Positions 3,679-19,467 of a DNA stretch of 43,232 nt are shown in pieces. Location: assembly GCA_016840855.1 (NCBI GenBank), contig JAEORO010000143.1:1-43232 (forward strand), given 5' to 3'. The stretch comes from Candidatus Thorarchaeota archaeon (lineage in GTDB: Archaea; Asgardarchaeota; Thorarchaeia; Thorarchaeales; Thorarchaeaceae). Positions within the stretch are counted from its first letter, which is position 1. The number at the start of each line of letters is the position of its first letter. Made by a program: the position numbers and the translations under genes. The notes under the pieces are model-generated. The model worked only from the letters and a program-made list of their open reading frames with translations, was not told the DNA's origin and ran no database searches.

Positions 3679-4752
3679 TTGTGCTTCTTCTTTCGCAAGG
3701 AGATTTCATTGGAGGCGTTTTCGATAAAGAAAATGATACTCGGAAAAACGAGGTTAGAAGTATCAAGAGTTGGTTTTGGAGGCATTCCTATACAGCGTCC
3801 ATCAGAAAATGAAGCAATAAGAGTTGTACAGCGAGCAGTTCAGCTTGGTATTAATTTCTTTGATACATCTGTGGGCTATGGAACTAGCGAACCAAGAATA
3901 GGAAAAGCCTTGCAGGGTCAGAGAGAGGAAGTTGTACTAGCCACAAAAGGTGGATGGCGGGATGGAGAAATGGTACAGGGGTCGCTCAGGGTCAGTCTCG
4001 AGCAATTGAAGACAGATTATATCGACATCTGGCAATTTCATAATGTGAGTTCGTTAGACACCTACAGCAGTCTTTTCAGGACTGATGGCCCAATGGAGGC
4101 GGCAATTGAAGCTTTGTCAGAGGGAACCATTCTCCATTTAGGAATCAGTAGTCACTCTCTTGAAGTTGCTCGTGAAGCAGTGATTTCTGATCAATTTGAT
4201 ACGATTCAATTTCCGTTCAACCTTGTTTATAGAAATGCAGCTGAAGAGCTCATAGATCTAGCAAAGAAGCATGATGTTGGATTCATTGGTATGAAACCAT
4301 TTGCAGGAGGGATGATACCAAGGGCCAAGCTTGCTCTGAAATATGTACTTCAATTTGAAAATGTCTTACCAGATCCTGGATTCGAAACAATAGAACAAGT
4401 AGAAGAAATAGTTAGTATCATTGAGAGCCCATTAAACATAACAAGAAAAGAACATGCAGAAATGGAACTAATACGTACTGAATTGGGAACCAAGTTTTGC
4501 AGACAATGTGGATATTGCCAGCCTTGCCCTAACGGAGTCAGCATTTCACTTATAATGATTGCACCAGTTATGTGGAATCTCTGGCCTCTAGAGAGTCTTT
4601 CTTCTAATTGGTATAATGAGGCCATCGAGAGTGGGACTCGGTGTGTTCAGTGTGGAGAATGCGAAGCCAAGTGTCCGTATCAATTACCTATCCGTGAGAT
4701 GATAAAAGAGAATATGATTTTTCATTCAAAGCGCAAAGAAGCTGGGAATTGA
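3679..4752 (+). CDS. Aldo/keto reductase with C-terminal 4Fe-4S dicluster domain
   Basis: LGKTRLEVSRVGFGGIPI, FFDTSVGYG, LATK, DYIDIWQFH and MKPFAGG motifs; C-terminal CRQCGYCQPCP and CVQCGECEAKCP. True start is probably 10-18 codons downstream. Confidence 0.93.
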   Translation: MCFFFRKEISLEAFSIKKMILGKTRLEVSRVGFGGIPIQRPSENEAIRVVQRAVQLGINFFDTSVGYGTSEPRIGKALQGQREEVVLATKGGWRDGEMVQGSLRVSLEQLKTDYIDIWQFHNVSSLDTYSSLFRTDGPMEAAIEALSEGTILHLGISSHSLEVAREAVISDQFDTIQFPFNLVYRNAAEELIDLAKKHDVGFIGMKPFAGGMIPRAKLALKYVLQFENVLPDPGFETIEQVEEIVSIIESPLNITRKEHAEMELIRTELGTKFCRQCGYCQPCPNGVSISLIMIAPVMWNLWPLESLSSNWYNEAIESGTRCVQCGECEAKCPYQLPIREMIKENMIFHSKRKEAGN

Positions 4753-4760
4753 CTAGAATA

Positions 4761-4794
4761 GAGTGACTGCCCGACTACGAAATCAGGCAGACTC
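4761..4794 (-). terminator. Stem-loop immediately downstream of the etfA remnant, between convergent genes
   Basis: Minus strand CTGCCTGATT-TCGT-AGTCGGGCAG gives 10 bp including G-U pairs, with outer GAGT/ACTC. Confidence 0.55.
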
Positions 4795-4800
4795 GTAAGA

Positions 4801-4956
4801 TTATCTCTTGGCTTGAAGTTCCTTGACTGCCTCAATGACCTCAGGAAGTACTGTGAAGATGTCACCAACTATGCCAAAGTCTGCCACACTGAAGATTGAA
4901 GCATCAGGATCCTTGTTGATTGCCACTATTATGTCTGAGGACAACATGCCCGCAAG
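4801..4956 (-). pseudogene. etfA: Remnant 3' end of a second etfA allele (51 codons + stop)
   Basis: Translates [51 protein letters not shown], 45/51 aa identical to the C-terminus of etfA at 5538-5693. Similarity stops abruptly upstream of 4956. Confidence 0.92.
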
Positions 4957-4997
4957 GATTATTCCCCTCTAAACTTTCGGATTGTTTTCACACTCAG

Positions 4998-5318
4998 TTA
5001 CTTGAATCCTTGGTCGATCTTTAGCTCAATGATTTCAACACGTTCATCGAATCTAGAGAGAAGTCTTCTCTCTTTCTCTGGAAGAAAAGCTTGAGTATAG
5101 TCCTCTCCTGCAAACTGCTTGATTCCTTCGAGGGTTTTGAAGTACGCGATTGTAATGAATTCAACTTCATCATTCTTGTCGTTCCGGAATAATTGGAAAC
5201 GTTCATACCCCTCGATGTTTCTTTCCTCACTCTCCTTGAAGATCAAGTCCTTCAGAAATTTCTCATACATGTCTGCATTACTTCGAGTAGTCCATCCTCT
5301 CCAAAATCTACATAGCAT
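4998..5318 (-). CDS. Antibiotic biosynthesis monooxygenase (ABM)-family dimeric alpha/beta barrel protein
   Basis: RFWRGWT...ADxYE...EGY...VEFITIAYF..LEGIKQFAGEDY..AFLP....LL.RFDE pattern typical of this small family. Confidence 0.8.
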   Translation of the reverse strand: MLCRFWRGWTTRSNADMYEKFLKDLIFKESEERNIEGYERFQLFRNDKNDEVEFITIAYFKTLEGIKQFAGEDYTQAFLPEKERRLLSRFDERVEIIELKIDQGFK

Positions 5319-5514
5319 TTTTAGTTCACCTAGTCTAGTTCAATAAAAAGAACTGTCAAACTTATCGATAAGCACATCGGCGGCATATGTGGGTAGTACG
5401 CATGGAAATAGGGCGAATCTGGGGGAGCTATATCAGAATCGCTCTATGACGAATTCGGTTACACATTGGCCTATTATTCCATTAGGTGTAGTGCGAAGAA
5501 ATTAGGCATAAAAT

Positions 5515-5539
5515 GAAGAAGACAGAGGATTGATCCTCT
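5515..5539 (-). terminator. Hairpin plus pyrimidine-rich tail ending the hdr-etf operon
   Basis: AGAGGAT-CA-ATCCTCT inverted repeat (5524-5539) at the etfA stop, followed on the minus strand by GTCTTCTTCATTTT. Confidence 0.5.
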
Positions 5540-6737
5540 ATCTCTCCGACTGAATCTTTTTCACAGCCTCTATGACCTCAGGTAGTACAGTGAAGATATC
5601 ACCCACTATGCCAAAATCAGCCACGCTAAATATCGGTGCGTCAGGGTCCTTGTTGATTGCAACTATAATGTCAGAGGAACTCATTCCAGCCAAATGCTGA
5701 ATCTGTCCTGATATTCCAAGAGCAATATAGAGCTTTGGACAGACCGTTCTCCCTGACTGACCAACCTGTTGCGATGGTGGAAGCCATCCCAAGTCAACAA
5801 TTGGTCGTGAGCCACCGATAGCTGCATCAAGCAGTTCAGCGAGCTGTTTCGGAAGCTCAAGATTTGAGGGGTCTTTGATTCCACGACCACTGCATACAAT
5901 GACATCCGCTTCCTCGACGGATTTCATGCCCTCAACAGCCTCACTCACAGTTTCCAACACTCGGGTCCGTACTTGCACAGCGCTGATTGTCATTGGGACT
6001 CGCTCAATCTCGCCATTTCTGGATGTGTCGGGTTCCAAAGGTTTGAACACATTTGGTCGAACTGTGGCCATTTGGGGTCTGGTATATGGGGAGAGAATCT
6101 CCGCCATGATGTTTCCACCAAAGGCAGGTCTTGTTTGTACGAGCTGTCGTTCTTCATCGATATCGAGACCTGTACAATCTGCAGTAAGCCCAAGTGCCAT
6201 CCTAGCTGCGACACGAGGTGCTAAGTCTCGTCCATTACTGGTCGCACCAAACAGCACAATTCCAGGTTTTCTCGGTGCTATCAGTGTGTTCATAGCAATT
6301 GTATAGGCATCAGTAGTATAATGGTCGAAGATTTTCTCATCAACAACAATCACTTTGTCTGCACCCTGATGTACAAGCTTCTGAGCATGTGCCTCAATCT
6401 CATGACCAACTAGGACCGCTACTAATTTCTCTCCTAGTTTGTCAGCTAACTCACGGCCCTTTGCGATGAGTTCAAGACCAACATTACGAAGACGCCCATC
6501 ATTGGTTTCACAGAAGACCCAGACATTCTTGTATTGGGCAATAGCATCCTTGTCAATGGTTTTTCTCTCAATCTTGATTGCATCTACTGGACATACCTCT
6601 TCACATGACCCACAGAGAACACATTTATCAAAGTCAAACTTGACCTTGTCCCCATCTTTTTCAATTGCATCAAAGTTGCAGACTTTGGGGCAGAGCATAC
6701 ACCCATTGCATACATCTCTATCATAATGCAATGACAT
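5538..6737 (-). CDS. etfA: Electron transfer flavoprotein alpha subunit with N-terminal 2x[4Fe-4S] ferredoxin domain
   Basis: N-terminal CNGCMLCPKVC and CVLCGSCEEVCP; ETF-alpha motifs [44 protein letters not shown]. Start ATG 6737. Confidence 0.96.
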   Translation of the reverse strand: MSLHYDRDVCNGCMLCPKVCNFDAIEKDGDKVKFDFDKCVLCGSCEEVCPVDAIKIERKTIDKDAIAQYKNVWVFCETNDGRLRNVGLELIAKGRELADKLGEKLVAVLVGHEIEAHAQKLVHQGADKVIVVDEKIFDHYTTDAYTIAMNTLIAPRKPGIVLFGATSNGRDLAPRVAARMALGLTADCTGLDIDEERQLVQTRPAFGGNIMAEILSPYTRPQMATVRPNVFKPLEPDTSRNGEIERVPMTISAVQVRTRVLETVSEAVEGMKSVEEADVIVCSGRGIKDPSNLELPKQLAELLDAAIGGSRPIVDLGWLPPSQQVGQSGRTVCPKLYIALGISGQIQHLAGMSSSDIIVAINKDPDAPIFSVADFGIVGDIFTVLPEVIEAVKKIQSER

Positions 6738-6738
6738 C

Positions 6739-7548
6739 TTAGATCGCCCCCTTCTTTGCCAAGAACTCAACTAGCTCTTTCGCAGCTGCTTTTGGGTCTT
6801 CAGCCTCTATCTTGATGCCGCCCTTCTTCTTTTCAGGCGGAAAGACCTTTCTTACCTGAGTAGGCGATCCCTTGAGACCGAGTTTGTCAACATCATATCC
6901 AAGGTTCTCAGCATTTACTTCCTCAAAGGGCTTCTTTTTGGCTTGCATGATGCCCATGATATTGGGAAGTCGTGGCTCGTTCAGCCCTTTTGTGGCTGTG
7001 AGAAGCACTGGCAACTTTGCGCGTATTACGTCATACCCCTCATCTGTTTCTCTATGAGCGATGATAAATTTCCCATCCTCACTCAGTTCGAGATGACGGA
7101 CATAACAAATCTGAGGAACACCTAACAATTCAGCAATCTCAGGACCCACTTGAGCTGTGTCACCATCAATTGCTTGCTTGCCACAAATGACAATATCAAA
7201 CTCCATCTTTTTGATTTGTTCTGCAAGAGTTAAGGCAGTGACCCAAGTATCTGCACCAGCAAAGGCTCGATCTGTCATATGGATGGCTTTGTCACCACCC
7301 ATCGCAAGCGCTTTGAGTAGTGCCTCTTTTGCTTGAGGAGGACCCATCGTGATGATGGTAACCTCACCACCATGTTTCTCTCTTAGTTGAATTGCAGCCT
7401 CTACAGCGAACTCATCAAAAGGATTCAGTATGCTTGGTACACCATCTCGAATCAGCGTACCAGTTTCCTCATTCACCTTGACATCGGCGACTTCTGGCAC
7501 CTGTTTCACAGGAACTATAATCTTCAGTGTCAGATTCTTCACACCCAA
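6739..7548 (-). CDS. etfB: Electron transfer flavoprotein beta subunit
   Basis: KQVPE, LNPFDEFAVEAA, TMGPPQA, FAGADT, GKQAIDGDTAQVG, NEPRLP, GLKGSPTQV. Confidence 0.97.
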   Translation of the reverse strand: MGVKNLTLKIIVPVKQVPEVADVKVNEETGTLIRDGVPSILNPFDEFAVEAAIQLREKHGGEVTIITMGPPQAKEALLKALAMGGDKAIHMTDRAFAGADTWVTALTLAEQIKKMEFDIVICGKQAIDGDTAQVGPEIAELLGVPQICYVRHLELSEDGKFIIAHRETDEGYDVIRAKLPVLLTATKGLNEPRLPNIMGIMQAKKKPFEEVNAENLGYDVDKLGLKGSPTQVRKVFPPEKKKGGIKIEAEDPKAAAKELVEFLAKKGAI

Positions 7549-7601
7549 TTGTCTGTAATCTGGCGGTTTCGGAAGATTGTACTCGTTATAAGGAGTATGT
7601 C

Positions 7602-8474
7602 CTAAACATCACCTGAGATGTGTTGGAGGATAGGCATGGCTGAAATCCTGTTCATCTCAAGGCCCACCTCATTTTGTGTAAGTCCCATCGCAAGTCCAAG
7701 TATCTGCGGATAGAACAGAACTGGAAGGTCATACTGCTCACCATAGGATTCCTTTAGACCAATCTGTTGTAAATCAAGTTGGTTGCAGCATGCGGGACAG
7801 ACGACCGTAACAAATGATGCTCCAGCTTCTTTCATTGATTTGAGCTTGTCCCGAGCGAGCCTTATCGCCAGATTTTCATTCACAGGTAAGACTGTAGCAC
7901 CACAACACTGTTTCCACAATGGGTACTCGACGATATGCGCACCAGTGGCTCTCACAAGTTCATCTAGAATAACTGGAGTGATTTCAGTAACATCGGTAGG
8001 TCGAAGAACATGACATCCATAATGAATCGCTATGCCAACACCATCAAGGGGTTTTGTAATCTTCTTTTTTATAGAACCGACGCCAACGTCCGTATAGATG
8101 ACTTCGATGAAATGACGTGGCTTGCTTATGCCCTTAAACTCCAAACCGTCCTGTTTCAATTCGTGGTTGACCCTTTCTCTGGTTTTTGTATCATGTCTTA
8201 GGAAATGATATACATCCTTTAGACTACCAAAACAACCATTGCAAGGAGTGACGACATCGTGTCCAATTCCATCAGCGATTGCAAGTGTACGAGCATTCAC
8301 TATCAACCAACCTAAGTGGTCGATTGCCCTCAGATTTGGACTACCACAACATGCCACATCTTCCAAGTATTCTAGTTCAAGTCCTAATAGCTCTGCGACA
8401 CGGTTCATGGATGATTCATAGTTAGGATAGTTCGCAGGGACACTACAACCCATATAGAGACTATATTTAGGCAT
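7602..8474 (-). CDS. hdrB: Heterodisulfide reductase subunit B (copy 1)
   Basis: Two CCG domains: GC...CCG...CNGC and HYGCH..RP...CCG...CPAC. Start ATG 8474. Confidence 0.93.
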   Translation of the reverse strand: MPKYSLYMGCSVPANYPNYESSMNRVAELLGLELEYLEDVACCGSPNLRAIDHLGWLIVNARTLAIADGIGHDVVTPCNGCFGSLKDVYHFLRHDTKTRERVNHELKQDGLEFKGISKPRHFIEVIYTDVGVGSIKKKITKPLDGVGIAIHYGCHVLRPTDVTEITPVILDELVRATGAHIVEYPLWKQCCGATVLPVNENLAIRLARDKLKSMKEAGASFVTVVCPACCNQLDLQQIGLKESYGEQYDLPVLFYPQILGLAMGLTQNEVGLEMNRISAMPILQHISGDV

Positions 8475-8475
8475 G

Positions 8476-9018
8476 TTATTTCCCCTCCTTAACAAGTCGA
8501 CCAGTGCGTGTTCCGCTGAGAATTCTTTTCACAGACTCGGTAGAGAAACCGGGTACCTCAGGTTCAAGGTTCAAGTCTTCCCTTTCCCAATCAGCAGTCA
8601 CAGTATAGAGCTGACCCTTCTCGATGAGCTCTTTTCCAAGTGCAATAATACTGCTAGGGATATTATTCTCTTCAGCTGCTAGGTTTTTACAGTCAAAGAA
8701 AATATCTGTAACTCGAACTCCTTGGGGACATCGTTCTTGGCACTCAAAACATGTTAGACAGAGCCAGATTTCCTTTGACTGCAGCACCCGTTCACGCATT
8801 CCAAGGAGAATCATTCGAATCAGCTGATGAGGTTTGATGTCCCAAACATTTGCAATTGGACATGCAGCTGTACAAGTTGAGCAGGCGAAACATGCTGATA
8901 GATCTTCAGCGTTCGGCATGCTCTGAATCTCTTTTCTGAAACTAGGGTCAAGTTCAGACATATTAATTGGGTCAATAAGAACTTCTGGAGGTTCTTTCTG
9001 CCCGTGGGTTTCTGTCAT
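8476..9018 (-). CDS. hdrC: Heterodisulfide reductase subunit C (copy 1)
   Basis: CFACSTCTAACP and IWLCLTCFECQERCPQGV; adjacent to hdrB. Confidence 0.93.
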   Translation of the reverse strand: MTETHGQKEPPEVLIDPINMSELDPSFRKEIQSMPNAEDLSACFACSTCTAACPIANVWDIKPHQLIRMILLGMRERVLQSKEIWLCLTCFECQERCPQGVRVTDIFFDCKNLAAEENNIPSSIIALGKELIEKGQLYTVTADWEREDLNLEPEVPGFSTESVKRILSGTRTGRLVKEGK

Positions 9019-11048
9019 GTTGGAGCACCTCCAGGTGTCTTTTCTGCTTGTTCTCGTTTTCTATGTGCGGAGATAAGACCAAGTATCTCTGCCTCTATTT
9101 GATCTGTCGTGAAGTGCCGTCGTGAGATGGCTCCTGTAGGACACACGACCTGACACTTTCCACAACCTGTGCAAAGGATTGAACTGATTTCAGCCAGCTC
9201 TTTTTCGTCATCTGTAACAGCCATAGATATTGCAGTGAATGGACAGACTTTCTCGCAAAGACCACACCCAATACAGAGTGAATCATCAACGACAGCTTTG
9301 TCCATCTGCACACGAACTTTACCCTTGAGAACATGTGATGCAGCTGCACTTGCCGCGGCTTTCCCGTCAGCAACACTGGCAGGAATATCCTTTGGGCTCT
9401 GACAAGCACCAGCGATGAACACGCCCCTTGATTTGGTGTTCACTGGCTCGAGTTTTGGATGAAGCTCCTTCATGAAGCCGCCTTCACTTCGATCGACGCC
9501 AATCATATGTGCCAAGTGGGCTGCACCTGGTGATGGATCAATAGCCATGGTCAAAACGACCATATCAAAGTTCAAACGCAAAAGGTTGCCAGTCCCCTGA
9601 TCAAAAACGGTGAAGCTGATACTGCCATCTTTTTCTTCTACCATATCGCTCGGAAAGCCTCTCACAAATTTCACGCCGCTCTCTCTCACTCGTCTATAGA
9701 ACTGCTCGTACTCCTTTCCGCCTGCCCTAAGCTCATGGTAGATTATCCATTGTTCGATATCATCAGGATATAATCTATGAGTCATCTCAGCATGTCTGAG
9801 AGTATACATGCACCCGAAATTGCAACACCAAGGGCGGCAGGTTTCATCTCTGGAACCAGCACAGTTGATGTAAGCTATACGTTTAGGCGTTTCTTCGAAT
9901 TTTGGAGGTAGGAGTATCTTACCCTCAGTTGGTCCAACTAGACTCAATAGACGACCATATTGACCTGCAGTCAACACGTGGGTGAATTTTCCCCCACCAT
10001 ATTCAGGTAGTTCCGTGAGGTCCATCTCTTTGAATCCTGTTGCTGCAACGATTGCACCAACAGTGAGTTCAATCTCTTCTTCTTCAACATCATATGAGAT
10101 GGCGTCACTGGGACACTTCTCAGCGCAGATTGTACACCCATCAGTCCAGTGAGTACATGATTCTCTATCTAGGAAAAACACACCAGGAACAGCTTGTGGA
10201 AAGGGTTTGTATATTGCCTTTCTCTTATCAAGTCCAAGATTCCACTCGTCAGGACCGGTAGCAGGACAGTTTCGCTCACAGGCACCACAGTTGATACATT
10301 TCTCTAAGTCCACATATCGAGGTTTCTTCTTGATGCGTACCCTAAAGTTACCATAGTCACGCTCAACTTCAACAACCTCTGAAAAGCTAAGTAGTTCAAT
10401 GTTCTTGTGACGATCAACTGCTGACAGTTTAGGAGAGAGAATACACATCGAACAGTCAAGTGTAGGGAAAGTCTTTTCCAGACGGGCCATATAACCTCCG
10501 ATTGACGTGTATTTCTCTACGAGGTGTACTTTGATGTCCTTATCAGCAAGGTCAAGCGCAGACTGTATTCCAGCTATACCAGCACCTATCACGAGAACAC
10601 TCTTTTCCACCGGATATTCCTCGAATCCAATGTCCTCGAGTTTCTTTGCCCGTTCAATTGCAGCCACAACGAGGTCGTAGGCAACCTTGTATGCTTCCTC
10701 CGGATTGTCACCATGAATCCATGTGTCATGCTCTCGAAGGTTTGCCTGGGCTAAACGGAATGGATTAAGGCCATTTTCCTCAAGAATTTCTCTGAATAAC
10801 TGCTCATGGAGCTTTGGTGTGCAAGCGCCAATAACAACACCTGTTAGATTGTGCTCTTTGATCTGTTTTGCTATTGTGTCCTGTCCATCTTTTGAGCAGG
10901 TGAACATATTGGATGTAGTAAAAACGACACCAGGATAGTCCTTAAACTCACGGGCAAGCTTCCTGACATTGATTATACCACCAATGTTGGTTCCGCAGCT
11001 ACAGATGAAGACTCCAATGCGATCTTCTGTATCCTTCTTTTTTGTCAT
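9015..11048 (-). CDS. hdrA: Heterodisulfide reductase subunit A (full-length architecture)
   Basis: RIGVFICSCGTNI, GACTP, GAGIAG, KTFPTLDCSMCILSP, inserted ferredoxin, CAGSRD, HPKLEPV, AGACQSPKDI, C-terminal 2x[4Fe-4S]. Confidence 0.96.
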   Translation of the reverse strand: MTKKKDTEDRIGVFICSCGTNIGGIINVRKLAREFKDYPGVVFTTSNMFTCSKDGQDTIAKQIKEHNLTGVVIGACTPKLHEQLFREILEENGLNPFRLAQANLREHDTWIHGDNPEEAYKVAYDLVVAAIERAKKLEDIGFEEYPVEKSVLVIGAGIAGIQSALDLADKDIKVHLVEKYTSIGGYMARLEKTFPTLDCSMCILSPKLSAVDRHKNIELLSFSEVVEVERDYGNFRVRIKKKPRYVDLEKCINCGACERNCPATGPDEWNLGLDKRKAIYKPFPQAVPGVFFLDRESCTHWTDGCTICAEKCPSDAISYDVEEEEIELTVGAIVAATGFKEMDLTELPEYGGGKFTHVLTAGQYGRLLSLVGPTEGKILLPPKFEETPKRIAYINCAGSRDETCRPWCCNFGCMYTLRHAEMTHRLYPDDIEQWIIYHELRAGGKEYEQFYRRVRESGVKFVRGFPSDMVEEKDGSISFTVFDQGTGNLLRLNFDMVVLTMAIDPSPGAAHLAHMIGVDRSEGGFMKELHPKLEPVNTKSRGVFIAGACQSPKDIPASVADGKAAASAAASHVLKGKVRVQMDKAVVDDSLCIGCGLCEKVCPFTAISMAVTDDEKELAEISSILCTGCGKCQVVCPTGAISRRHFTTDQIEAEILGLISAHRKREQAEKTPGGAPT

Positions 11049-11962
11049 TTGGATTGCACCTCCATTTTCCCCCTCACAGGGCTAGGTCCTAGATTCTTGA
11101 TTTTCTCAACAAACTCTGTCACAATTTCAGCGAACTTGATACCCATGGCTGCTGAGGCAAAGTCAATGTATAGCCTACCGCCTAAGCCAATCTCCTCGAA
11201 CATATTCTGCCAGAATTTGACAAAATCAGCCTGCATGAAGTTCCCAGCCAATGGGTCATCGCCACCGTAGTGACACTCAGAGAGAAGACAGCCAGTCACC
11301 AACACACCATCCACTCCGTTCTCTAGTGCTGTCATTATCTGAATAGGTTCTACTGCACCACTGCAGGGCACACGTATTGTGCGAATATTAGTGGGATAGT
11401 GTAAATGCATCAACCCAGCGAGGTCAGCTGCTGCATGAGAGCACTCCCAGCAAACAAAACAGATGATGAATGGTTCCCAGTCAGCAATCTCTATGGCGGG
11501 TGGTGGTTCCACTTCCCCAACAACACTCACTAAATCATATGTCTTCTCTAAAGTGAGGCAATCCTCTTTACAAGCTTCAACACACTTGTTACAGGCTATG
11601 CACTTCCGAGCAGACCAAGAAATAGAGCCATATCCAGGTAGTCCTGTGGGGACTGATATAGTCTGTACTTCACCATCTTGTTTTAATGCCTGCAACAGTG
11701 ATATCAAAGACTCACGGTTTTTTGACCTAAACCCTTCGTCTGGTAGTATTGCATTGAGATAGTCTGGCAAGCGTACGGTTCCTTCTAGCTCGAGAGCTTC
11801 AACCTCGCACGCCTCAATACATTTCTTACAAGCACTGCAGGATGGCGGCCTATAGGCGATGCTCCCAAAGCCCTCAACTTTATCAGGAACCTCTAAGATT
11901 CGAGTGGGAGCCTTCACTGCAATGTTACGTATCTTCTGAATGAGCCGTTCTCGTTTATCCAT
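11045..11962 (-). CDS. mvhD: Ferredoxin-MvhD fusion (N-terminal 4Fe-4S motifs + MvhD/FlpD [2Fe-2S] domain)
   Basis: CSACKKCIEAC and CIACNKCVEAC, then FVCWECSHAAADLAG...YP..IR.IRVPCSG...DGVLVTGC..SECHY...LGPSP. Start ATG 11962. Confidence 0.92.
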   Translation of the reverse strand: MDKRERLIQKIRNIAVKAPTRILEVPDKVEGFGSIAYRPPSCSACKKCIEACEVEALELEGTVRLPDYLNAILPDEGFRSKNRESLISLLQALKQDGEVQTISVPTGLPGYGSISWSARKCIACNKCVEACKEDCLTLEKTYDLVSVVGEVEPPPAIEIADWEPFIICFVCWECSHAAADLAGLMHLHYPTNIRTIRVPCSGAVEPIQIMTALENGVDGVLVTGCLLSECHYGGDDPLAGNFMQADFVKFWQNMFEEIGLGGRLYIDFASAAMGIKFAEIVTEFVEKIKNLGPSPVRGKMEVQSK

Positions 11963-13919
11963 GTAGCCCCACCTCCTTCCGCATCTTTTCAGGCGTCGCT
12001 GCAATCATATACGTGACTTGTACTCTCTCTGGATCCTGTCTAATTTCGCGCAACATATCTCTGGTGAGTTGGACTATGAGTTCTGAGTGATGGTCACCAG
12101 TCTGGTGATGACATCCCCCGGGCGGACAGTGCGCAATAATAATTCTCTCTGCACCGACGACTAGACCTTTCAAAATCTCAATCGGGGAAACCATCCCTGC
12201 ACAGGGAAACTGTACCACATATGTCCCTGTGGGATAGCTCTTACTACTGAAACCAGCTTGATCTATTGAAGCATTAGCACACTCACTACAAGCGTAGACT
12301 AGTGTGAATGGTTTATTCCTCTCAAGGCGTTTGTGAGTCTTTGCTATTGTTTCGAGTCTGGCGAACCAACTCTCCTTGCCATGCGATTGAAACTCTATTG
12401 CTCTAGTTGGACATGATGACACGCAAATACCGCAAAACTCACAGTGGACTGGTATGTGTATCACCCTATCATCAAAAAGGCGTAATGCATCATTTGGACA
12501 AGCAGTGATGCATGCTTTGCATACATCGCATTCTTCATCATCAATGACCGGCATCCAACCAGCTCGCTTCAAAGGTGCTTTGATGATTTTATAGGCTTCA
12601 AGTACTGCATTCTGGGCTGAGCTAAGAGCATGGGGAAGGTCCATTGCCATCTTTGCACCACCAGCGATGAAGATTCCTCTTCGTGAGGTCTGTACAGGTT
12701 TCATCTTACTGTACCTAGTCTTGATGAAGCCTCTACTATCACACTCTACACCCAAAGTAGTTGCTAATCGGGCTGTATAATCCACTGGACCAATCAACTG
12801 ATTGACTGCAATAATATCTACAGTGACCTCTCGCATGATTGACTCGAGCTTGTTTTCAATTTGACAAGTCAGTCCATCTTTGTTCTCCTTGACCTGTTTC
12901 AAAGTGCCTCGTACAAAGATTACTCCTGCCGCTCGGGCTCGTCGATATAGGTTCTCATCATCTGTTCGGATGTTTGAGTGCAAACAGAAGACAGTGTTGC
13001 CTTGAGTGGCTAGTACTTCGCTCATTCTTAGAAGATGACTTCCCTCGGCTGAAGAAAATTCAACATCAGGATCGGTTACAATCAAGATGTCTGACGACTT
13101 CTTTGCCCCTTTTTTCTTAGAGTCAGTAACCAAGCTTTGAAGAGTCAAGACTCTGTCTGATTTTCCGAAACGACACTTCTTTGCGATGCCTGGAAGGTAT
13201 TGTTGTGTTCCTGTTGCGACTATGATTGCTCCATAGTCTTGTGTTGTAAATTTGTTCTCAGGGTCCTTCCAAGTAACTTCGTATGAACCCATTTGCCCAC
13301 TAATCTCGTTTATGAATCCTTGAACTCGCTCTACCCCCGAGAGTTCTTTACGAAGACCAGCAAGTGTTTGACTAAGTGTTTTGTTGTCACTCATGAAGAA
13401 GTGGGCATTGTGGTACTTTTCATCACTCTGACCTAGAGGCTCTACAAGGGTAACATCGACTCCTAGTTTCTTAAGGTCGACAGCAGCCTGCAGCCCAGCA
13501 ATTCCGCCTCCAATAATGAGAACTCTTTCAGTCATATTCTCGTTGAACTCAGTTGCTGATTCCATATAGTCCAAGTGTACAGATGCATCAGCCAACAGAA
13601 CTATCGCCTTGCTAGTAGCAGACTTATTATCCTCCGGATGGACCCAAGCGATATGTTCTCTGAGGGGGACAAAAGAAACTAGATTGAGCATCAGTTTCTG
13701 TTTCACTGGGATGCCAATGATTTGTGAACTGCACGCCCCAATTGTTACTTGGTCATCATCTGACACACTCTGCCTAAGTTTAGAAAGACCATCATCAAGA
13801 CAAAGGTAGTCTAAAGTTTCAATGGTATCGAATGTTTTTGCGAGTTCATTTTCAATCTTAGAGAAGTCCAAAGTCTTGTTGAGAGTGTTATTGCAGGTGC
13901 AGAGAAACAGTTTCTTCAT
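11955..13919 (-). CDS. Degenerate HdrA-like flavoprotein fused to ferredoxin and MvhD (QmoB-like architecture)
   Basis: LFLCTC N-domain, GACS, REHIAWVH, GGGIAG; lacks the inserted ferredoxin and the CxGSRD cluster. C-terminal CDVCKACITACP/CEFCGICVSSCP and MvhD-like YACSEC...FPCAG...HCPPGGCHH. Confidence 0.88.
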   Translation of the reverse strand: MKKLFLCTCNNTLNKTLDFSKIENELAKTFDTIETLDYLCLDDGLSKLRQSVSDDDQVTIGACSSQIIGIPVKQKLMLNLVSFVPLREHIAWVHPEDNKSATSKAIVLLADASVHLDYMESATEFNENMTERVLIIGGGIAGLQAAVDLKKLGVDVTLVEPLGQSDEKYHNAHFFMSDNKTLSQTLAGLRKELSGVERVQGFINEISGQMGSYEVTWKDPENKFTTQDYGAIIVATGTQQYLPGIAKKCRFGKSDRVLTLQSLVTDSKKKGAKKSSDILIVTDPDVEFSSAEGSHLLRMSEVLATQGNTVFCLHSNIRTDDENLYRRARAAGVIFVRGTLKQVKENKDGLTCQIENKLESIMREVTVDIIAVNQLIGPVDYTARLATTLGVECDSRGFIKTRYSKMKPVQTSRRGIFIAGGAKMAMDLPHALSSAQNAVLEAYKIIKAPLKRAGWMPVIDDEECDVCKACITACPNDALRLFDDRVIHIPVHCEFCGICVSSCPTRAIEFQSHGKESWFARLETIAKTHKRLERNKPFTLVYACSECANASIDQAGFSSKSYPTGTYVVQFPCAGMVSPIEILKGLVVGAERIIIAHCPPGGCHHQTGDHHSELIVQLTRDMLREIRQDPERVQVTYMIAATPEKMRKEVGLHG

Positions 13920-15188
13920 TTAGGCACCTCCCTCCAAGTCTAAATAAACCTGCAATGCCACAGAGTTTGCCTCAGCAAAACTAGTCGGGATATCAGTAGG
14001 TCCAGTGGATGTGCCACAGGCATAGATTCTTTTTGAAGAGCCTTGGTGAGAAACGAACCCATTTTTATCGAGGACATCTCCAAATTCATTCATATCAGAG
14101 GCAAGGGCAACGAGGGGTGAAGCTAATACGACCAAGTCAGATTTTAGCTCTAGTCGCTTTTTGGATTCAGTGTCTTCCACGAGGGTCACCGGGGATTCTC
14201 CTCGGACCACGACTTGGTCAGGTTTTCCTCGCACGAACCGAACACCAAGATCTCTTGCGAGAGTGATATAGTGCTGACTGTGTGAGGGAACTCGTAGGTC
14301 CATGTAGCATAGAGTCACATCTATACCGGAATTTCTCAGCATTATTGCATGTTTGAGACTATATGTACAGCAGGCTTGGGAGCAGTACTCGACTGCACTC
14401 AAATCCCTACTCCCAGCGCAAAGTATCATTGTAACAGAGTTTACAGAACTTCCCGATGCTGTAAGAACTACGCCATTAGTAGGACCAGTGGAATCCAGAA
14501 GCCGAGCGAGCTCTCTTTGCGTTAATACATCTTGACATTTACCATATTCGTACCCTGGCAAGTCAACTGGATTTCTTTCTTCAACACCAGTTGCAATGAC
14601 CACTGCATCAGCAGTCACAGTGCGGCTTGTTGATTTCTGTTCGAGATTGATAGCACCTACTCCGCAGACCTCGACACATTTACCACATTTCGTGCAAGAT
14701 TCCATATCAATAACTGGGATAAGAGGAACAGCCTGCGGAACTGTTCTATAGATTGCTTTTCGCGTCTTTCTTTTGAGGTTCAGCTCATCCAGAGCCTCGA
14801 CATCACATACATTGATACATTCAAGACACACAACGCAGCGGTCAGGTGAAACATATCTTGGTTGAGATCGTAGTGACACCGAAAACTTGCTTTCATTCAT
14901 CTTGATAGATTTGACCTCAGTCTGAGTATGAAGGACCAGTCGTTTCTGTGTCCCAAGTAAGGTTCTATATTGACAACGGCGATGTTTGCCATCGTATAAC
15001 TCCTGACACACATCAAGACAAAGAGCACAGTCATCGGTAGGGAAGACTTTTCCAAGGTGAGTCGATAGCCCTCCAACCGTCACTTCTTTTTCAATAAGAT
15101 GAACATTCATCCCAAGATCTGAGAGCTGTTGCGCAACTTGTATGCCAGCAAGCCCAGCACCAATCACTACAACGGTTTTTGTCATCAT
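13920..15188 (-). CDS. Short HdrA-like flavoprotein lacking the N-terminal and C-terminal ferredoxin domains (QmoA-like size)
   Basis: Starts directly at VVVIGAGLAG; KVFPTDDCALC, inserted ferredoxin (CVVCLECINVC, CTKCGKCVEVC), CAGSRD...YCSQACCTYSLKHA, ACGTSTGPTDI; 422 aa. Confidence 0.9.
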   Translation of the reverse strand: MMTKTVVVIGAGLAGIQVAQQLSDLGMNVHLIEKEVTVGGLSTHLGKVFPTDDCALCLDVCQELYDGKHRRCQYRTLLGTQKRLVLHTQTEVKSIKMNESKFSVSLRSQPRYVSPDRCVVCLECINVCDVEALDELNLKRKTRKAIYRTVPQAVPLIPVIDMESCTKCGKCVEVCGVGAINLEQKSTSRTVTADAVVIATGVEERNPVDLPGYEYGKCQDVLTQRELARLLDSTGPTNGVVLTASGSSVNSVTMILCAGSRDLSAVEYCSQACCTYSLKHAIMLRNSGIDVTLCYMDLRVPSHSQHYITLARDLGVRFVRGKPDQVVVRGESPVTLVEDTESKKRLELKSDLVVLASPLVALASDMNEFGDVLDKNGFVSHQGSSKRIYACGTSTGPTDIPTSFAEANSVALQVYLDLEGGA

Positions 15189-16087
15189 TCACCAACTCCT
15201 ATCTTCTCCAGCAAAGGTTCAATTTTCACTCGATGATACCTTCTCGCATTGCTGACAACAAGATCTGTCTGGCCCATTGCGAGAGCGAGCATTTCTCCCA
15301 AGTATAGAACAGGCATGCTAAATTCTGGGTCTAGATGTTCGACAGCTTTTCTCTGCTGTGTTTCAAGTTGTGTGTAGCAAGTGGGACAAATCAGAACAAT
15401 GGCATCTGCGCCAGCTTCACGTATTTTCTGAAGTTTCTGGGCAGTGAGCTTGAATGATTTTGATTCATCAGAGGGGCCAATAGGAGCACCACAACAAGCC
15501 ATCTTATCTCTGTATTCAACTGGCTTAGCACCAACTAATTTGACTAAATCTTCCATCCATCGTGGATTCTCTGCGTCATCCATATGTGTTGCTTCAATTG
15601 GTCTGACAAGGTGACATCCGTAGTGGGAAGCTAAAGAAAGACCATTGAGAGGATGAGTTATTTTTTTCGCGATTAGATCCAGGCCTACATCCTCATGTAG
15701 TACATGAAGTATGTTCTTTACAGTGACTTCTCCGGTTGCCTCCATTCCAGCTTTCTTAAGTCTCTTGTTGACTCTATCTCGTAAGTTTGAATCTGTTTTG
15801 AGGGTGTGCTTTACAACAGATAATGTGTGAAAGCAGCCACTGCATAAAGCGACTGTGTCACGACGACTAGACTCGCTTACTGCAATATTCCTGGCACCTA
15901 TCGTGAACCACGCTTCAATATCCACACCAGGGAACGTAGTAGGTTCAGGACAACATGTGTGTCCCTCATCCGTGATTAGTTCCACATTCAGATTCTTCAA
16001 GACCTCTCTCATGGTGAGTTCAAAATGGGGAAGTCTGAATGGGATTGTACATCCTGGGAAATAGGTGTATTCTATAGACTTACTCAC
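15185..16087 (-). CDS. hdrB: Heterodisulfide reductase subunit B (copy 2)
   Basis: YFPGC...CCP...CSGC and HYGCHLVRP...CCG...CPTC. Likely start GTG 16087 after GGGGTG. Confidence 0.93.
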   Translation of the reverse strand: MSKSIEYTYFPGCTIPFRLPHFELTMREVLKNLNVELITDEGHTCCPEPTTFPGVDIEAWFTIGARNIAVSESSRRDTVALCSGCFHTLSVVKHTLKTDSNLRDRVNKRLKKAGMEATGEVTVKNILHVLHEDVGLDLIAKKITHPLNGLSLASHYGCHLVRPIEATHMDDAENPRWMEDLVKLVGAKPVEYRDKMACCGAPIGPSDESKSFKLTAQKLQKIREAGADAIVLICPTCYTQLETQQRKAVEHLDPEFSMPVLYLGEMLALAMGQTDLVVSNARRYHRVKIEPLLEKIGVGE

Positions 16088-16607
16088 TTTCAGCACCCCC
16101 ATAGCTAGATTCAGCAGATTCAACCCGCTCAATTGTTCCTAGTTCTTTGAGGATTTTACCAAGCTGTTCAATTGGCGGTGTTCCTAGACTTGGTAGCCCC
16201 ATTTTTTCACGCGTCTTAAGCATTGGTTCGCTGACCAAAATTGTGCGTCCTTCTGAAAGAATGGCTCGTGCTCTATCAAGAGCAGTCTGAGGCGTATTTC
16301 CAGAAAGCAACCCTCTCACTTTAGCAAGCACTAGGATTTCAGGTATCTTCACATGCTCAGGGCATCTGACTTCACACTGTTCGCAAGTAAGGCAAGTCCA
16401 GATTAGTTGCTCCTGTGCTAATGATTCATCTGCTAGAATTAGTTTCTCTAGAAAGAGTCGTGGGTTGAATGACTCGTCTATCGATGCTACAGGACAAGCA
16501 GCTGTGCATCTTCCACATTGGTAGCATCTCAATAGGGTCATACCCTCTGGCTGCAGAAGAATCCACCTACGGAATTCAAGGTCCGATGATATTTCATGAG
16601 CTGTCAT
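16080..16607 (-). CDS. hdrC: Heterodisulfide reductase subunit C (copy 2)
   Basis: CYQCGRCTAACP, FNPR, IWTCLTCEQCEVRCP. Likely start ATG 16607; first gene of the operon. Confidence 0.93.
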   Translation of the reverse strand: MTAHEISSDLEFRRWILLQPEGMTLLRCYQCGRCTAACPVASIDESFNPRLFLEKLILADESLAQEQLIWTCLTCEQCEVRCPEHVKIPEILVLAKVRGLLSGNTPQTALDRARAILSEGRTILVSEPMLKTREKMGLPSLGTPPIEQLGKILKELGTIERVESAESSYGGAESE

Positions 16608-16854
16608 AATAGTCAAACCATGTAAACTGGATGTAAATTCTCGAGTTAAGCGTCCCAAAAAGAATGTCGATTTGTTTCAGATTTTTGTTATAATTCGATT
16701 TATGCCATATAGGAAAGAACCTTGAGATTGGATGTAATTTTAAGAGACACATTTCATCACTCGATGACGAATCATATCACCTACGTAATCCTTTTATTAG
16801 TGCGCTAGCGCTAACCGTGGTAGTTCCTTTAACAAATAGAGGAGAGTAATCACG

Positions 16855-17172
16855 ATCGGAAAAGAAAAGGCAATTGGTGCCCTTATCTTCATATTCGCCC
16901 TGCTGGTGCTAATCTACTACACTTGGGGGCTAGTTATCCTTCAATTATTCCCAGACCTCTCAACCTGGGTTGTTGACACATTTGGTGCTTTGGCACCTCT
17001 ATTCAATCCAAGTCCAGATTTCCTGGTTCAACTACCGATATACCTGGGCGTGGTTCTAATCATGGTCATTGCTATGTGGATTGGTTGGACAATGCTGACC
17101 ACTCCTGCTCCAGAGCCACTTGAGGACTTCGACTTCGATGAGGAAGAAGTTGCAGAGAAGGCTGAAGAGTAA
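16855..17172 (+). CDS. Small two-TM membrane protein, DPM2/PIG-P-like; apparent non-canonical ATC start
   Basis: Frame is open from TAG at 16837 with SD GAGGAG at 16839-16844: (I)GKEKAIGALIFIFALLVLIYYTWGLVIL...FNPSPDFLVQLPIYLGVVLIMVIAMWIGWTMLTTPAPEP + acidic tail. The track start at 16906 would cut the first TM helix. Confidence 0.8.
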   Translation: MGKEKAIGALIFIFALLVLIYYTWGLVILQLFPDLSTWVVDTFGALAPLFNPSPDFLVQLPIYLGVVLIMVIAMWIGWTMLTTPAPEPLEDFDFDEEEVAEKAEE

Positions 17173-17195
17173 TCCTTCAAGTACAGCTAGCGAAC

Positions 17196-17214
17196 AGGGC
17201 CGAAAGGCCCTTTC
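17196..17214 (+). terminator. GNRA-tetraloop hairpin downstream of the DPM2-like gene
   Basis: AGGGCC-GAAA-GGCCCT followed by TTC. Confidence 0.6.
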
Positions 17215-17244
17215 ATCTCATGTTGTTAGTAGATAATATCGTAG

Positions 17245-17597
17245 CTAACTGCTTTTACCTTCATCTGTCATTTTGAGGGCTTTATTAATTAAATCAACAA
17301 CAATTTCACAAAGCCGGTCTGCATCGTCCTAGGTCTTTCTTTCTGCGAAACTATGATAGAGTGGTTCAGTGTCCGATGGACAAATTAACATCCAACCTTC
17401 AGCATATATGTGGAACGTAAACCTGCAGTTTTTAGACGAGTAAACATCTCTCCACCCATTCTCGAGTCACGAGCCATAGCAACATTGTCAGAACCTAATA
17501 CAGACTCGATTACTCTTCCAAGATTCATGACAATGTCAACTGTAGACTCTTTGTTGATTAAACTGCGAATGCCATTAGTGTCAAATATGTTGGTCAG
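17245..17597 (-). pseudogene. Phosphomannomutase/phosphoglucomutase (alpha-D-phosphohexomutase) pseudogene with large internal deletion
   Basis: N-terminal motifs IFDTNGIR (consensus FGTxGxRG) and ARDSRMGGEMF are joined near 17410, in another frame, to the C-terminal motif EGWMLICPSDTEPLYHSFAE (consensus GWxLxRPSGTEPxxRxxAE), with an internal TAG. The catalytic SHNP and DGDAD domains are absent. Confidence 0.88.
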
Positions 17598-17675
17598 GAT
17601 GAGTTCACTCAGGACATAGTGCAAATAGGTCATGACTTAAGAGTTACTGCGAAATTAATGATTCAGTGTTATAAC

Positions 17676-18215
17676 ATGCCTCTATTTGGACGTTCGAAAG
17701 ATTCGGAATACAGAGATGCTGCAAGATTGCTGAAGGAGGGAAAAGTCGCAGAAACAATCAGAAAGCTGAGAGTAATTGTCGAAAAGAGTCCCACACATGT
17801 CAATGCGTATGTGACCCTAGCTGTAGCCCTCATGGAGGCTCAAGAGAAACCTACAAGAGATAGCCCTCAGACCGTAGAGGCATTGGCTCTGCTCGATACA
17901 GCAGCTGCGTTGGACAAAAAGAATCCTATCCCATACTTCAATATGGGTGTGATACTCAGGAAGCTTGGTCTTCTTGAGGAAGCTCTAGTGAGCTTTGACA
18001 AAGCTTTGGAGAGGGAGGAACGGCAACCACTAGCGATAGCTAATATGGCGGAGATTAACTATGAGTTAGAACGGTGGGAGGAAGCAATTCGCCTAGCCAA
18101 ACTGGCTCTCATAAGAGACCCTGGTCTTGAATCATCTATGGGTTGGGTAAGAGTTGCTATGAGAAAAGCGGGAATGTTAGATCATGATGGCAATGTGATT
18201 CATCGTCCAGAGTGA
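17676..18215 (+). CDS. Tetratricopeptide repeat protein
   Basis: Repeated helical TPR patterns (AYVTLAVAL, PYFNMGVIL..LG..EEAL.SFDKAL, AIANMAEINY....WEEA). Likely start ATG 17676. Confidence 0.85.
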   Translation: MPLFGRSKDSEYRDAARLLKEGKVAETIRKLRVIVEKSPTHVNAYVTLAVALMEAQEKPTRDSPQTVEALALLDTAAALDKKNPIPYFNMGVILRKLGLLEEALVSFDKALEREERQPLAIANMAEINYELERWEEAIRLAKLALIRDPGLESSMGWVRVAMRKAGMLDHDGNVIHRPE

Positions 18216-18259
18216 TGGACAGTACGCAATGCTTAAATTGACACCTCTCGGCTTCAGCA

Positions 18260-18304
18260 CAGTTACGAGTCGTGACAAACGACTCCGTATACTATAACTG
18301 GTGA
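18260..18304 (+). promoter_or_regulatory. Structured 5' leader of rps19
   Basis: GAGTCGT-GACAA-ACGACTC perfect stem (18267-18285) inside an outer CAGTTA/TAACTG pair whose 3' arm touches the GGTGA SD. Confidence 0.5.
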
Positions 18305-18954: not shown

Positions 18955-19467
18955 ATGGACGCTCTAGAAGTAATCTATACAAGGCGAAGTATCAGAAAAT
19001 TCGTAATGAAAGAGATACCTGATGAGGACGTCATTAAGATTCTGAAAGCAGGGATGTGTGCCCCGACAGCTGGAAACCAAAGACCTTGGCAATTCATCGT
19101 CGTTAGGGAGAGGGAGATGTTTGATTGTTTCATGGAAGCTTATCAGTACACGAAGCAGATGTTAGTAGATGTCCCTGTGGCAATAATGGTTTGTCTTGAT
19201 CGGAATCGAGAAAAATACGAGAATCGCTGGCAAATGGACTGTGCCAACGCTACTTTAAACATGCTACTTGCCGCACATAGTATGGGATACGGTGGTCTTT
19301 GGCTTGAGATATATCCAGTTGAGGAACGTATTAAGATGATTCAGGAATCTTTCGAACTCCCAGAAACAGTAATTCCCTTTGCTTTAGTAACTGTTGGACA
19401 TGCTGCTGAAGAAAAGCCTCTGGTTGATCGATATGATTCGTCATTAATCCATTACAACAAATGGTAA
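18955..19467 (+). CDS. Nitroreductase family protein
   Basis: TRRSIRKF, APTAGNQRPWQFIVV, DCANATLNMLLAAHSMGYGGLW, IHYNKW. Confidence 0.95.
   Translation: MDALEVIYTRRSIRKFVMKEIPDEDVIKILKAGMCAPTAGNQRPWQFIVVREREMFDCFMEAYQYTKQMLVDVPVAIMVCLDRNREKYENRWQMDCANATLNMLLAAHSMGYGGLWLEIYPVEERIKMIQESFELPETVIPFALVTVGHAAEEKPLVDRYDSSLIHYNKW

Follow-up and report, generated by a model that had tools for sequence, protein, structure and literature searches.

A 43,232-nt stretch of DNA from Candidatus Thorarchaeota archaeon (GenBank assembly GCA_016840855.1, contig JAEORO010000143.1, positions 1 to 43,232; hereafter the window) carries ten head-to-tail genes for heterodisulfide reductase (Hdr) components and for an electron-transfer flavoprotein (ETF). 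With a slight preference over other readings, these ten genes were interpreted as two juxtaposed units: an eight-gene Hdr operon (16658-7602) and the gene pair etfBA. The double-Hdr operon is real, and the Hdr-ETF machine proposed in an initial annotation made from the sequence remains unproven. According to the interpretation that we consider a little better supported than not, the operon would encode a double-Hdr particle, the ETF would serve acyl-CoA dehydrogenases encoded elsewhere in the genome, and the two units would have become neighbors by insertion.

Gene content and organization of the cluster

The open reading frame (ORF) listing showed ten minus-strand ORFs arranged head to tail from 16658 to 5538, and Pfam backed the identity of every one of them, so that the gene order given by the initial annotation, from hdrC to etfA, held. 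In what follows, L-numbers denote homologous loci, G-numbers sampled genomes and C-numbers contigs; the window is contig C86 of genome G000, which is 92% complete. The ten genes and the element between the two units are as follows.

16080..16658, minus strand: gene 1, hdrC1, 192 aa as listed; Pfam Fer4_8 / Fer4_17; same position in relatives' loci
15185..16132, minus strand: gene 2, hdrB1, a divergent HdrB in which both CCG motifs are complete; Pfam CCG x2
13920..15188, minus strand: gene 3, hdrA', a 422-aa half-HdrA with the FAD/TrxR core and an inserted 2x[4Fe-4S] ferredoxin domain
11955..13919, minus strand: gene 4, hdrA''::mvhD, the complementary half-HdrA, 654 aa; Pfam FlpD at 540-649
11045..12004, minus strand: gene 5, the Fd::mvhD adaptor, 319 aa as listed; Pfam FlpD at 180-306
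9015..11048, minus strand: gene 6, hdrA, a canonical four-domain HdrA of 677 aa
8476..9018, minus strand: gene 7, hdrC2; Pfam Fer4_8 / Fer4_17
7602..8495, minus strand: gene 8, hdrB2, a canonical HdrB; Pfam CCG x2
7586..7592, minus strand: CTTATAA, putative TATA-like box of etfB, 9 nt past the hdrB2 stop codon
6739..7548, minus strand: gene 9, etfB; Pfam ETF, bifurcating type
5538..6770, minus strand: gene 10, Fd::etfA; Pfam Fer4 + ETF + ETF_alpha

From hdrC1 to etfA, the successive junctions measured -53, -4, 0, -50, -4, -4, -20, +53 and -32 nt, and the sole gap, of 53 nt, lies upstream of etfB. The overlaps of -53 and -50 nt become smaller with the later start codons suggested by orthologues. 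The true start of hdrC1 is probably near Met18 and that of Fd::MvhD probably Met15; for etfB, a GTG at 7542 is the probable start, and etfA starts about 10 codons inside the listed ORF. In-frame stops occurred within the first 3-9 codons in six orthologue references (five for etfA, one for etfB).

As the initial annotation had stated, mvhA, mvhG, fdh, flx and apr are absent from the cluster and its surroundings: the Pfam scan covering the ten genes and 30 flanking ORFs of the window returned no hydrogenase, formate dehydrogenase, Flx or Apr. The flanking ORFs include transporters, peptidases, a TPR protein and ribosomal protein S19.

Domain anatomy of the Hdr proteins

The HdrA encoded by gene 6 aligned end to end (residues 4-657) with solved HdrA (E 1.5e-184), including the motif FPTLDCSMC. 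It combines the FAD/TrxR core with an N-terminal cluster domain and with inserted and C-terminal ferredoxin domains, and it lacks the NfnB-like insertion carried by some orthologues.

Genes 3 and 4 encode two halves of this architecture. [quoted passage not shown] HdrA'', which matched solved HdrA and MvhD piecewise, keeps the N-terminal Cys domain, the FAD dinucleotide motif, the C-terminal ferredoxin domain and a fused MvhD; the inserted ferredoxin domain is missing, and FFMSDNKTLS stands in place of the Cys197 motif.

Both HdrB proteins matched solved HdrB with aligned cysteines (E 2e-67 for HdrB1 and 1e-68 for HdrB2), and each has two CCG motifs, of the type that ligates two non-cubane [4Fe-4S] clusters. 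In a maximum-likelihood tree of 39 HdrB rows, HdrB1 formed its own long-branch clade (13 rows, support 100/100), separate from HdrB2, which bears out the earlier claim of two non-identical HdrBC pairs. The adaptor Fd::MvhD combines two CxxCxxCxxxC motifs (residues 56-66 and 136-146) with a canonical MvhD domain (E 6e-30 to solved MvhD/VhuD).

Three paralogous modules in one genome

The core hdrC-hdrB-hdrA'-hdrA'' is present three times in the genome, each time followed by different genes.

C51: hdrC-hdrB-hdrA'(432 aa)-hdrA''(582 aa), then mvhD, an Oxidored_q6 small subunit (mvhG) and a NiFe large subunit (mvhA)
C132: hdrC-hdrB-hdrA'(416 aa)-hdrA''::MvhD(721 aa), then a 754-aa iron-sulfur (FeS) protein, an acyl-CoA dehydrogenase and a cupin
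C86, the window: hdrC1-hdrB1-hdrA'-hdrA''::MvhD, then Fd::MvhD, HdrA, hdrC2 and hdrB2

In the alignment, the complementarity of HdrA' and HdrA'' was the same in all three modules: the HdrA' class has FPTxDCxxC and the inserted ferredoxin domain and is devoid of the N- and C-terminal domains, and the HdrA'' class is the reverse. A core with interchangeable downstream partner genes is thus a modular rule in this genome, the partners being hydrogenase genes on C51, the FeS protein and acyl-CoA dehydrogenase genes on C132, and a second Hdr in the window.

The module on C51 also bears on two points raised by the initial annotation. The label "hydrogenase-free" is correct for the cluster and fails for the genome, where a search for mvhAG found mvhD-mvhG-mvhA behind an hdr module of its own. 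The possibility that MvhAG encoded elsewhere docks on the MvhD domains of the window was rejected, the C51 hydrogenase genes following their own mvhD and their own hdrC-hdrB-hdrA'-hdrA''.

The window genes hdrC2 and hdrB2 are 72% identical to hdrC and hdrB of the C132 module, and the HdrB2 clade (11 rows, 99/94) is nested within the C132-type clade (18 rows, 100/100). Because of this nesting, HdrB2 is read from the tree as a young paralogue, copied from the HdrB of the module linked to acyl-CoA dehydrogenase. The C132-type gene order was kept in 6 of the 7 sampled loci from other genera and genomes, and the 754-aa FeS protein was present in 84 of 86 genomes of the family.

Some further observations concern these modules. 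The C132 operon corresponds to L066:1080-9888 on the minus strand. Seven genomes have a longer form of the 754-aa protein, about 975-1000 aa in length, with a match confined to residues 417-753. On C239 of G000 (~42338-45125), a second NiFe hydrogenase large-subunit gene has a 555-aa FAD-oxidase-type gene as its immediate neighbor.

Distribution of the eight-gene operon

At a threshold of E 1e-40 or better, Fd::MvhD orthologues were detected in 17 of 251 genomes sampled across the phylum, every one in family f1 and together spread over four genera; within the genus of the window, 15 of 28 genomes were positive. The scan returned 27 loci, 23 from records of Thorarchaeota, Promethearchaeota or uncultured archaea and four of them weak bacterial matches. 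Genes 1-6 occurred in the order of the window in the Thorarchaeota loci compared, where the contig permits, with the exception of L035, which has only the tail of gene 4 followed by genes 5 and 6.

In four loci (L032, L033, L034 and L036), the orthologue of gene 6 is split by about 460 residues. In L034, the insertion consists of Fer4_20 and Pyr_redox_2, an NfnB/GltD-like NAD(P)H module placed inside the inserted ferredoxin domain of HdrA. The gene 4 tree unites the loci with the insertion in a single clade (100/99).

A looser relative was found in another family of the phylum. The locus G025:C52 encodes hdrB, a polyferredoxin, hdrC, hdrB, hdrA', HdrA::MvhD, a 160-aa ferredoxin, HdrA and MvhD, which amounts to two HdrB, three HdrA, two MvhD and a separate ferredoxin gene.

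In the single-contig genome G256, the window-type and C132-type operons (L035 and L076) are both cut just inside hdrA'', leaving the MvhD tail; either true deletions or a faulty assembly may account for these cuts. In other families of the phylum, several HdrA matches (e.g., G026, G024 and G030) contain one to three in-frame TGA codons, which fit a selenocysteine-containing HdrA; such proteins have been reported for Asgard archaea in the accessible part of PMC11227280.

A double-Hdr particle or two enzymes

According to the proposed mechanism, the two complementary half-HdrAs would take the place of the usual HdrA homodimer in each module. The second Hdr (Fd::MvhD, HdrA and HdrC2-HdrB2) would be the partner module of this heterodimeric core, because it occupies the partner slot, travels with the core, and is joined to it by a plausible wire, Fd::MvhD plus HdrA''-MvhD. 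In this wire, of the form [2Fe-2S]-[4Fe-4S]2-[2Fe-2S], the two MvhD centers and the clusters of the adaptor would connect two HdrA-type flavin sites via their mid-potential ports. This would let ferredoxin exchange electrons with two different thiol/disulfide (or protein) couples, one at HdrB1 and one at HdrB2, and neither hydrogenase nor quinone nor membrane would be required. In the insertion-bearing relatives, NAD(P)H would enter via the HdrA orthologue; in the window, input or output at the second end would be whatever HdrB2 handles.

The eight genes could alternatively encode two separate enzymes sharing one transcript, HdrB1C1-A'A''::MvhD and Fd::MvhD-HdrA-HdrB2C2, with donors encoded elsewhere or a diffusible cofactor. 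This arrangement was considered possible, at well below even probability. Each half has full HdrA functions, an HdrBC pair and an MvhD; hdrC2B2 can be lost; and the best NCBIfam model for genes 3-6 was HdrA2, under its cut-off. HdrA2 of Methanosarcina, an HdrA::MvhD fusion that uses F420H2, provides a precedent, since HdrA2B2C2 works without extra subunits according to the available portions of PMC5296606 and PMC6085437. The distribution speaks against such a separation: the halves travel together in the Thorarchaeota loci, and a comparable set occurs in another family (G025:C52). Moreover, the second half sits exactly in the partner slot of the paralogous modules, and no other obvious role was apparent for the Fd::MvhD adaptor.

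Properties of the ETF

The ferredoxin-fused etfA of the window is the single ETF_alpha match in the genome. Among solved structures, EtfA matched CarE best (1e-108), followed by the Bcd, Acidaminococcus, Lct and Fix ETFs (down to 2e-81); matches to non-bifurcating ETFs reached 3e-48 or weaker. EtfB behaved similarly, with 1e-70 to 1e-58 to solved bifurcating EtfB versus 1e-35 or weaker to non-bifurcating ones. By these sequence comparisons, etfBA is assigned to the bifurcating CarDE/Bcd type (group 2, with the second FAD predicted in EtfB, as opposed to the AMP-binding ETFs), in agreement with the initial annotation.

Of 301 genomes sampled in the phylum, 230 gave an EtfB orthologue; for the family the count is 65 of 76. 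In the loci of other Asgard families, etfBA adjoins an acyl-CoA dehydrogenase gene in 10 of 14 cases, and no hdrABC cluster was found next to etfBA in any of these 14 (L113 gave one weak HdrB-like match). Likewise, no hdrB was found upstream of etfBA in 13 family loci with 1.5-kb flanks. The genome of the window has four acyl-CoA dehydrogenases and eight FAD-oxidase-type genes, all outside the window. Because the etfBA neighbors are conserved in other Asgard families, the four acyl-CoA dehydrogenases are most likely the primary partners of the ETF, which would serve them as an NADH- and ferredoxin-linked bifurcating flavoprotein.

Phylogenetic co-occurrence was dropped as a test of hdr-etf coupling, ETF being near-universal in the family by the EtfB count. 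In genus g24, the ETF_alpha family search was positive in one of five operon-bearing genomes, a figure that overstates the absence of ETF because the EtfB search found it in further genomes of this genus (positive in G188 and G256, partial in G253, negative in G171 and G244).

The last ~140 nt of etfA (5539-5678) are repeated 0.6 kb downstream (4802-4941) with 80% nt identity, and the repeat also occurs three times on C115 of G000 (~2042-2229, 19428-19651 and 21857-21994). Six loci of relatives also contain EtfA C-terminal fragments, 1-5 kb downstream of etfA. The repeats were considered as the mark of an integrated element; this was unsupported, with no integrase-like domain in the 19 C115 ORFs scanned.

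Origin of the hdr-etf adjacency

In 13 loci of the genus, etfBA stands with no hdr upstream (L061 with only 1 kb upstream). In several of these hdr-less loci, etfB is preceded by a gene for a 284-aa protein and by phosphoglucomutase, with TPR and S19 genes beyond and ABC transporter genes on the other side. In the window, these ABC genes likewise lie below etfA, and these TPR and S19 genes above hdrC1. Between hdrC1 and the TPR gene, remains of phosphoglucomutase were recovered by tblastn.

17272..17588, minus strand: two phosphoglucomutase remnants (residues 6-71 and 407-452)

The remnants, at 17376-17588 and 17272-17409, are 45% and 52% identical to the intact phosphoglucomutase of L054, and an intact copy is located on C37. 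In addition, all 21 loci compared, whether they have hdr upstream or not, contain a single CTTATA[AT], at -57 to -76 relative to the etfB Lys9 codon; by its position, CTTATAA appears to be a retained, TATA-like promoter element belonging to etfB itself. Because of the remnants, the shared flanks and this box, the hdr block reads as an insertion at the ancestral etf locus, between the etfB promoter and phosphoglucomutase.

Adjacency of hdrB2 and etfB was seen in G000, G005, G014, G039, G018 and G009, and by contig spacing in G033 and G037. It thus holds in every informative genome, eight in total, of one subclade of one genus, the subclade with high identity and plain HdrA, and was found nowhere else; G016 and G038 of the subclade lie on short contigs and were not counted as informative. 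The etfB gene follows hdrB2 directly in seven of the eight and lies 4.3 kb away in G005, where a gene for a 1329-aa NosD/beta-helix-repeat protein on the opposite strand is found between the two (L017:14806-18795).

Outside the subclade, five loci (L026, L027, L028, L033 and L037) contain hdrB2 in full but no etf in the 5 kb or more available past it. There, the lack of conservation next to hdr that the initial annotation had named as a refutation does apply. Five genomes of the genus carry a lower-identity version of the operon, and the ETF is at its ancestral locus in all four that are readable (G010, G031, G034 and G015). Among the lower-identity genomes, the HdrA insertion was seen in G010, G008 and G015; it was left unchecked in G031 and G034. 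In the gene 4 tree, an unresolved polytomy holds the adjacent loci, as two groups, together with two non-adjacent ones. A single hdr insertion event is compatible with this tree, without being shown by it.

Contact between the ETF and the Hdr proteins

The initial annotation placed the ETF on MvhD as a built-in input module, in the position of the hydrogenase, feeding electrons from NADH or acyl-CoA to an asymmetric supercomplex. As a replacement for hydrogenase the ETF is unsupported, because etfBA is ancestral at the locus, has what appears to be its own TATA-like box and lies outside the inserted block, and the model as a whole was judged highly improbable. Two MvhD domains with no donor enzyme encoded beside them do leave room for it, and the N-terminal 2x[4Fe-4S] domain of EtfA could reach a [2Fe-2S] center. 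The NfnB-like NAD(P)H module on the central HdrA of relatives is a precedent for pyridine-nucleotide input, and within the genus the plain-HdrA genomes have etf adjacent while those with the lower-identity version have it elsewhere. However, plain-HdrA operons with no adjacent etf exist, ETF is far commoner than the operon (230/301 versus 17/251 genomes) and occurs in many genomes devoid of it, and the etf neighbors in other Asgard families are acyl-CoA dehydrogenases. No ETF is known to bind MvhD, and no result obtained here speaks for a contact between MvhD and EtfA.

A different contact, in which the ETF would dock on HdrB2 and replace the disulfide as high-potential acceptor (or donor) of the second Hdr, was regarded as unlikely. 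Acyl-CoA/NADH chemistry would in that case be chained to the two HdrA flavins. The direct succession of hdrB2 and etfB in the seven subclade genomes fits this arrangement, as does the kinship of HdrB2/HdrC2 with an HdrBC whose operon has an acyl-CoA dehydrogenase as its last gene. The searches for MCR_alpha, ComA and DsrC found no disulfide carrier in the genome, and class II benzoyl-CoA reductase (BCRII), in the accessible part of its description (10.64898/2026.04.10.717634), offers a precedent with ETF next to the non-cubane clusters of BamD. Against it, the cysteine set of HdrB2 is that of a normal disulfide-reducing HdrB, with none missing, and the adjacency appears to be a recent insertion beside a retained etf promoter. 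Furthermore, the five loci outside the subclade have the hdr operon, including hdrB2, with no adjoining etf, and neither ETF_alpha nor EtfB was found in the operon-bearing genomes G171 and G244 (81% and 74% complete).

Both ideas could also be joined. Two back-to-back HdrA flavin modules would then sit in one soluble particle, linked by two MvhD [2Fe-2S] centers and the 2x[4Fe-4S] adaptor, with the only bifurcating ETF on HdrB2. This combination was considered very unlikely. If true, it would chain three flavin-based bifurcation sites and, in a fermenting Asgard archaeon, lead from acyl-CoA/NADH oxidation to ferredoxin and a thiol couple without any step at a hydrogenase, a quinone or the membrane.

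The preferred interpretation, with a double-Hdr particle beside an independently acting ETF, has several points against it. With regard to the particle, what speaks for a single supercomplex is gene order and co-inheritance only, and the second Hdr half is variable, because hdrC2B2 is missing from three of the four insertion-bearing loci (L032, L034 and L036). The window HdrA'' lacks the cluster cysteines CxGSRD...CSxxCC that its paralogues retain in the alignment, and because of this loss its flavin may be structural only. NCBIfam agreed with the gene identities in direction, yet all Hdr and Etf matches remained under the curated cut-offs: HdrB 270 and 279 bits versus 345, HdrA2 726 versus 1100, and HdrC 73 and 91 versus 160 (for hdrC1 against TIGR03290, 72.6 bits).

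With regard to the independence of the ETF, the 53-nt gap between hdrB2 and etfB has no oligo-T run; because of this, read-through from hdrB2 into etfBA appears possible, and the two units may be co-expressed. The adjacency was kept in all eight subclade genomes at protein identities down to ~76-84%, which is compatible with selection for linkage. Finally, a real HdrB2-ETF contact is plausible by analogy, because the closest paralogue of HdrB2 lies in an acyl-CoA-dehydrogenase operon and ETF binds BamD in BCRII. Four metatranscriptome contig sets yielded three short pieces (39, 33 and 215 nt) with 88-95% likeness, none of them across 7549-7601.

Comparison with known systems

The closest structural references are the MvhADG-HdrABC complexes of methanogens (5ODC, 8RVU, 7BKB, 9SFI), whose solved subunits were matched, with cofactor cysteines, by the gene 6 HdrA, both HdrB, both HdrC and both MvhD. 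In contrast to these complexes, the window operon has neither hydrogenase nor formate dehydrogenase, combines three HdrA-like genes and two HdrBC pairs in one operon, and scores under all NCBIfam equivalog cut-offs. A donor enzyme acting via MvhD (MvhAG or FdhAB) was not found in the operon or its flanks. The context of a CoM-S-S-CoB substrate was likewise not encountered: MCR_alpha, ComA, searched as a check for CoM synthesis, and DsrC were not found in the 92% complete genome, and the best AprA match was far under the cut-off (27 bits versus 642). No disulfide substrate could thus be identified from the genome, in line with the initial annotation, which named none.

In the ANME tandem HdrA genes and the fused HdrA of Moorella MetFV-HdrABC-MvhD, complementary HdrA parts are read as an HdrA heterodimer in the accessible part of PMC9012536. 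The adjacent genes 3 and 4 of the window show the same complementarity as described there. They differ in belonging to an Asgard archaeon, in being joined to a second complete Hdr via an Fd::MvhD fusion, and in that HdrA'' also lacks the TrxR-domain cluster cysteines. As for HdrL, which combines HdrA with an NfnB/GltD-like module, gene 6 orthologues in the same operon of relatives carry Fer4_20 and Pyr_redox_2, whereas the window HdrA has no NAD(P)H-module insertion.

In BCRII from Geobacter metallireducens (bioRxiv 10.64898/2026.04.10.717634), ETF density was located beside the two non-cubane clusters of the HdrBC-like BamD, ETF reduction was BCRII-dependent with ETF as high-potential acceptor, and an MvhD-like adaptor joins two bifurcation modules, as far as the accessible text of the preprint goes. 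To the same extent, the complex, Bam[(BC)2DEFGHI]2, resembles the window operon in three respects: an HdrA-type bifurcating module connected to a second module through an MvhD-like adaptor, an HdrBC-like subunit with ETF as redox partner (in the window a candidate contact only), and an HdrA dimer with one working and one structural flavin. Neither the tungsten AOR-type BamB nor the HydBC-like BamGHI was found among the ten genes and the 30 flanking ORFs, and HdrB2 has a full cysteine set, unlike BamD as described in that text.

The window EtfA and EtfB are far closer to those of CarCDE (6FAH), Bcd-EtfAB (5OL2, 4KPU) and LctBCD (7QH2) than to non-bifurcating ETFs. CarE and LctC carry a ferredoxin domain on EtfA, as in the window; unlike in these systems, no dehydrogenase gene lies beside the window etfBA.

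In two further cases the likeness concerns gene architecture. One operon, that of the sulfur-oxidizing system sHdr (hdrC1B1A-hyp-hdrC2B2), is similar in its two hdrCB pairs; it is not known to include MvhD and has a single short HdrA only. No lipoate-binding protein or sulfur-carrier genes were found among the flanking ORFs scanned; the genome itself was not searched for them. The other, QmoAB-HdrCB of Gram-positive sulfate reducers, shares with the window, in gene architecture, a QmoA/QmoB-like pairing of a short HdrA and a long HdrA with an MvhD-like end beside hdrCB. With no AprA over the cut-off and no DsrC in the genome, a link to dissimilatory sulfate reduction was not found, and the likeness is one of architecture only.

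Other features of the region

A terminator-like element, recognized by a consensus scan alone, was located at the very end of etfA.

5519..5544, minus strand: stem-loop with T-rich tail

Upstream of hdrC1, a stretch of about 450-570 nt (16780-17228) showed 79-92% nt identity in L017, L018, L019, L020, L021 and L024. It was not found 5' of hdrC1 in the remaining loci compared and had no Rfam match. Within it, on the opposite strand, lies an 88-aa ORF (16906-17172, plus strand) with hydrophobic segments and an acidic tail. Overall, window positions 4500-18300 gave no Rfam match at E 0.1 or better. A bacterial-type promoter scan gave 15 sites versus 20.2 expected; it uses a bacterial consensus that is not applicable to archaea.

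Meaning of the double-Hdr operon

Complementary HdrA pairs, HdrL insertions, hydrogenase-less Hdr clusters and ferredoxin-fused bifurcating ETFs are already known kinds. No paper on this double-Hdr operon or an hdr-etf cluster in Thorarchaeota was found in full-text searches of the literature, although supplementary gene tables of Asgard metagenome-assembled genomes may list the genes; in their accessible text, Asgard papers mention hdr and etf genes in general terms only.

The case of the window recommends caution in reading function from adjacency, since its ETF neighbor appears traceable to a datable insertion event. The substrates of Hdr-type bifurcating enzymes outside methanogens are a standing question, and Asgard archaea are central to syntrophy models for the origin of eukaryotes. 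The modular rule of a fixed hdrC-hdrB-hdrA'-hdrA'' core with exchangeable partners leads to testable predictions on the redox couples that these organisms connect, and a double Hdr would, beside BCRII, be another example of bifurcation modules that are coupled.

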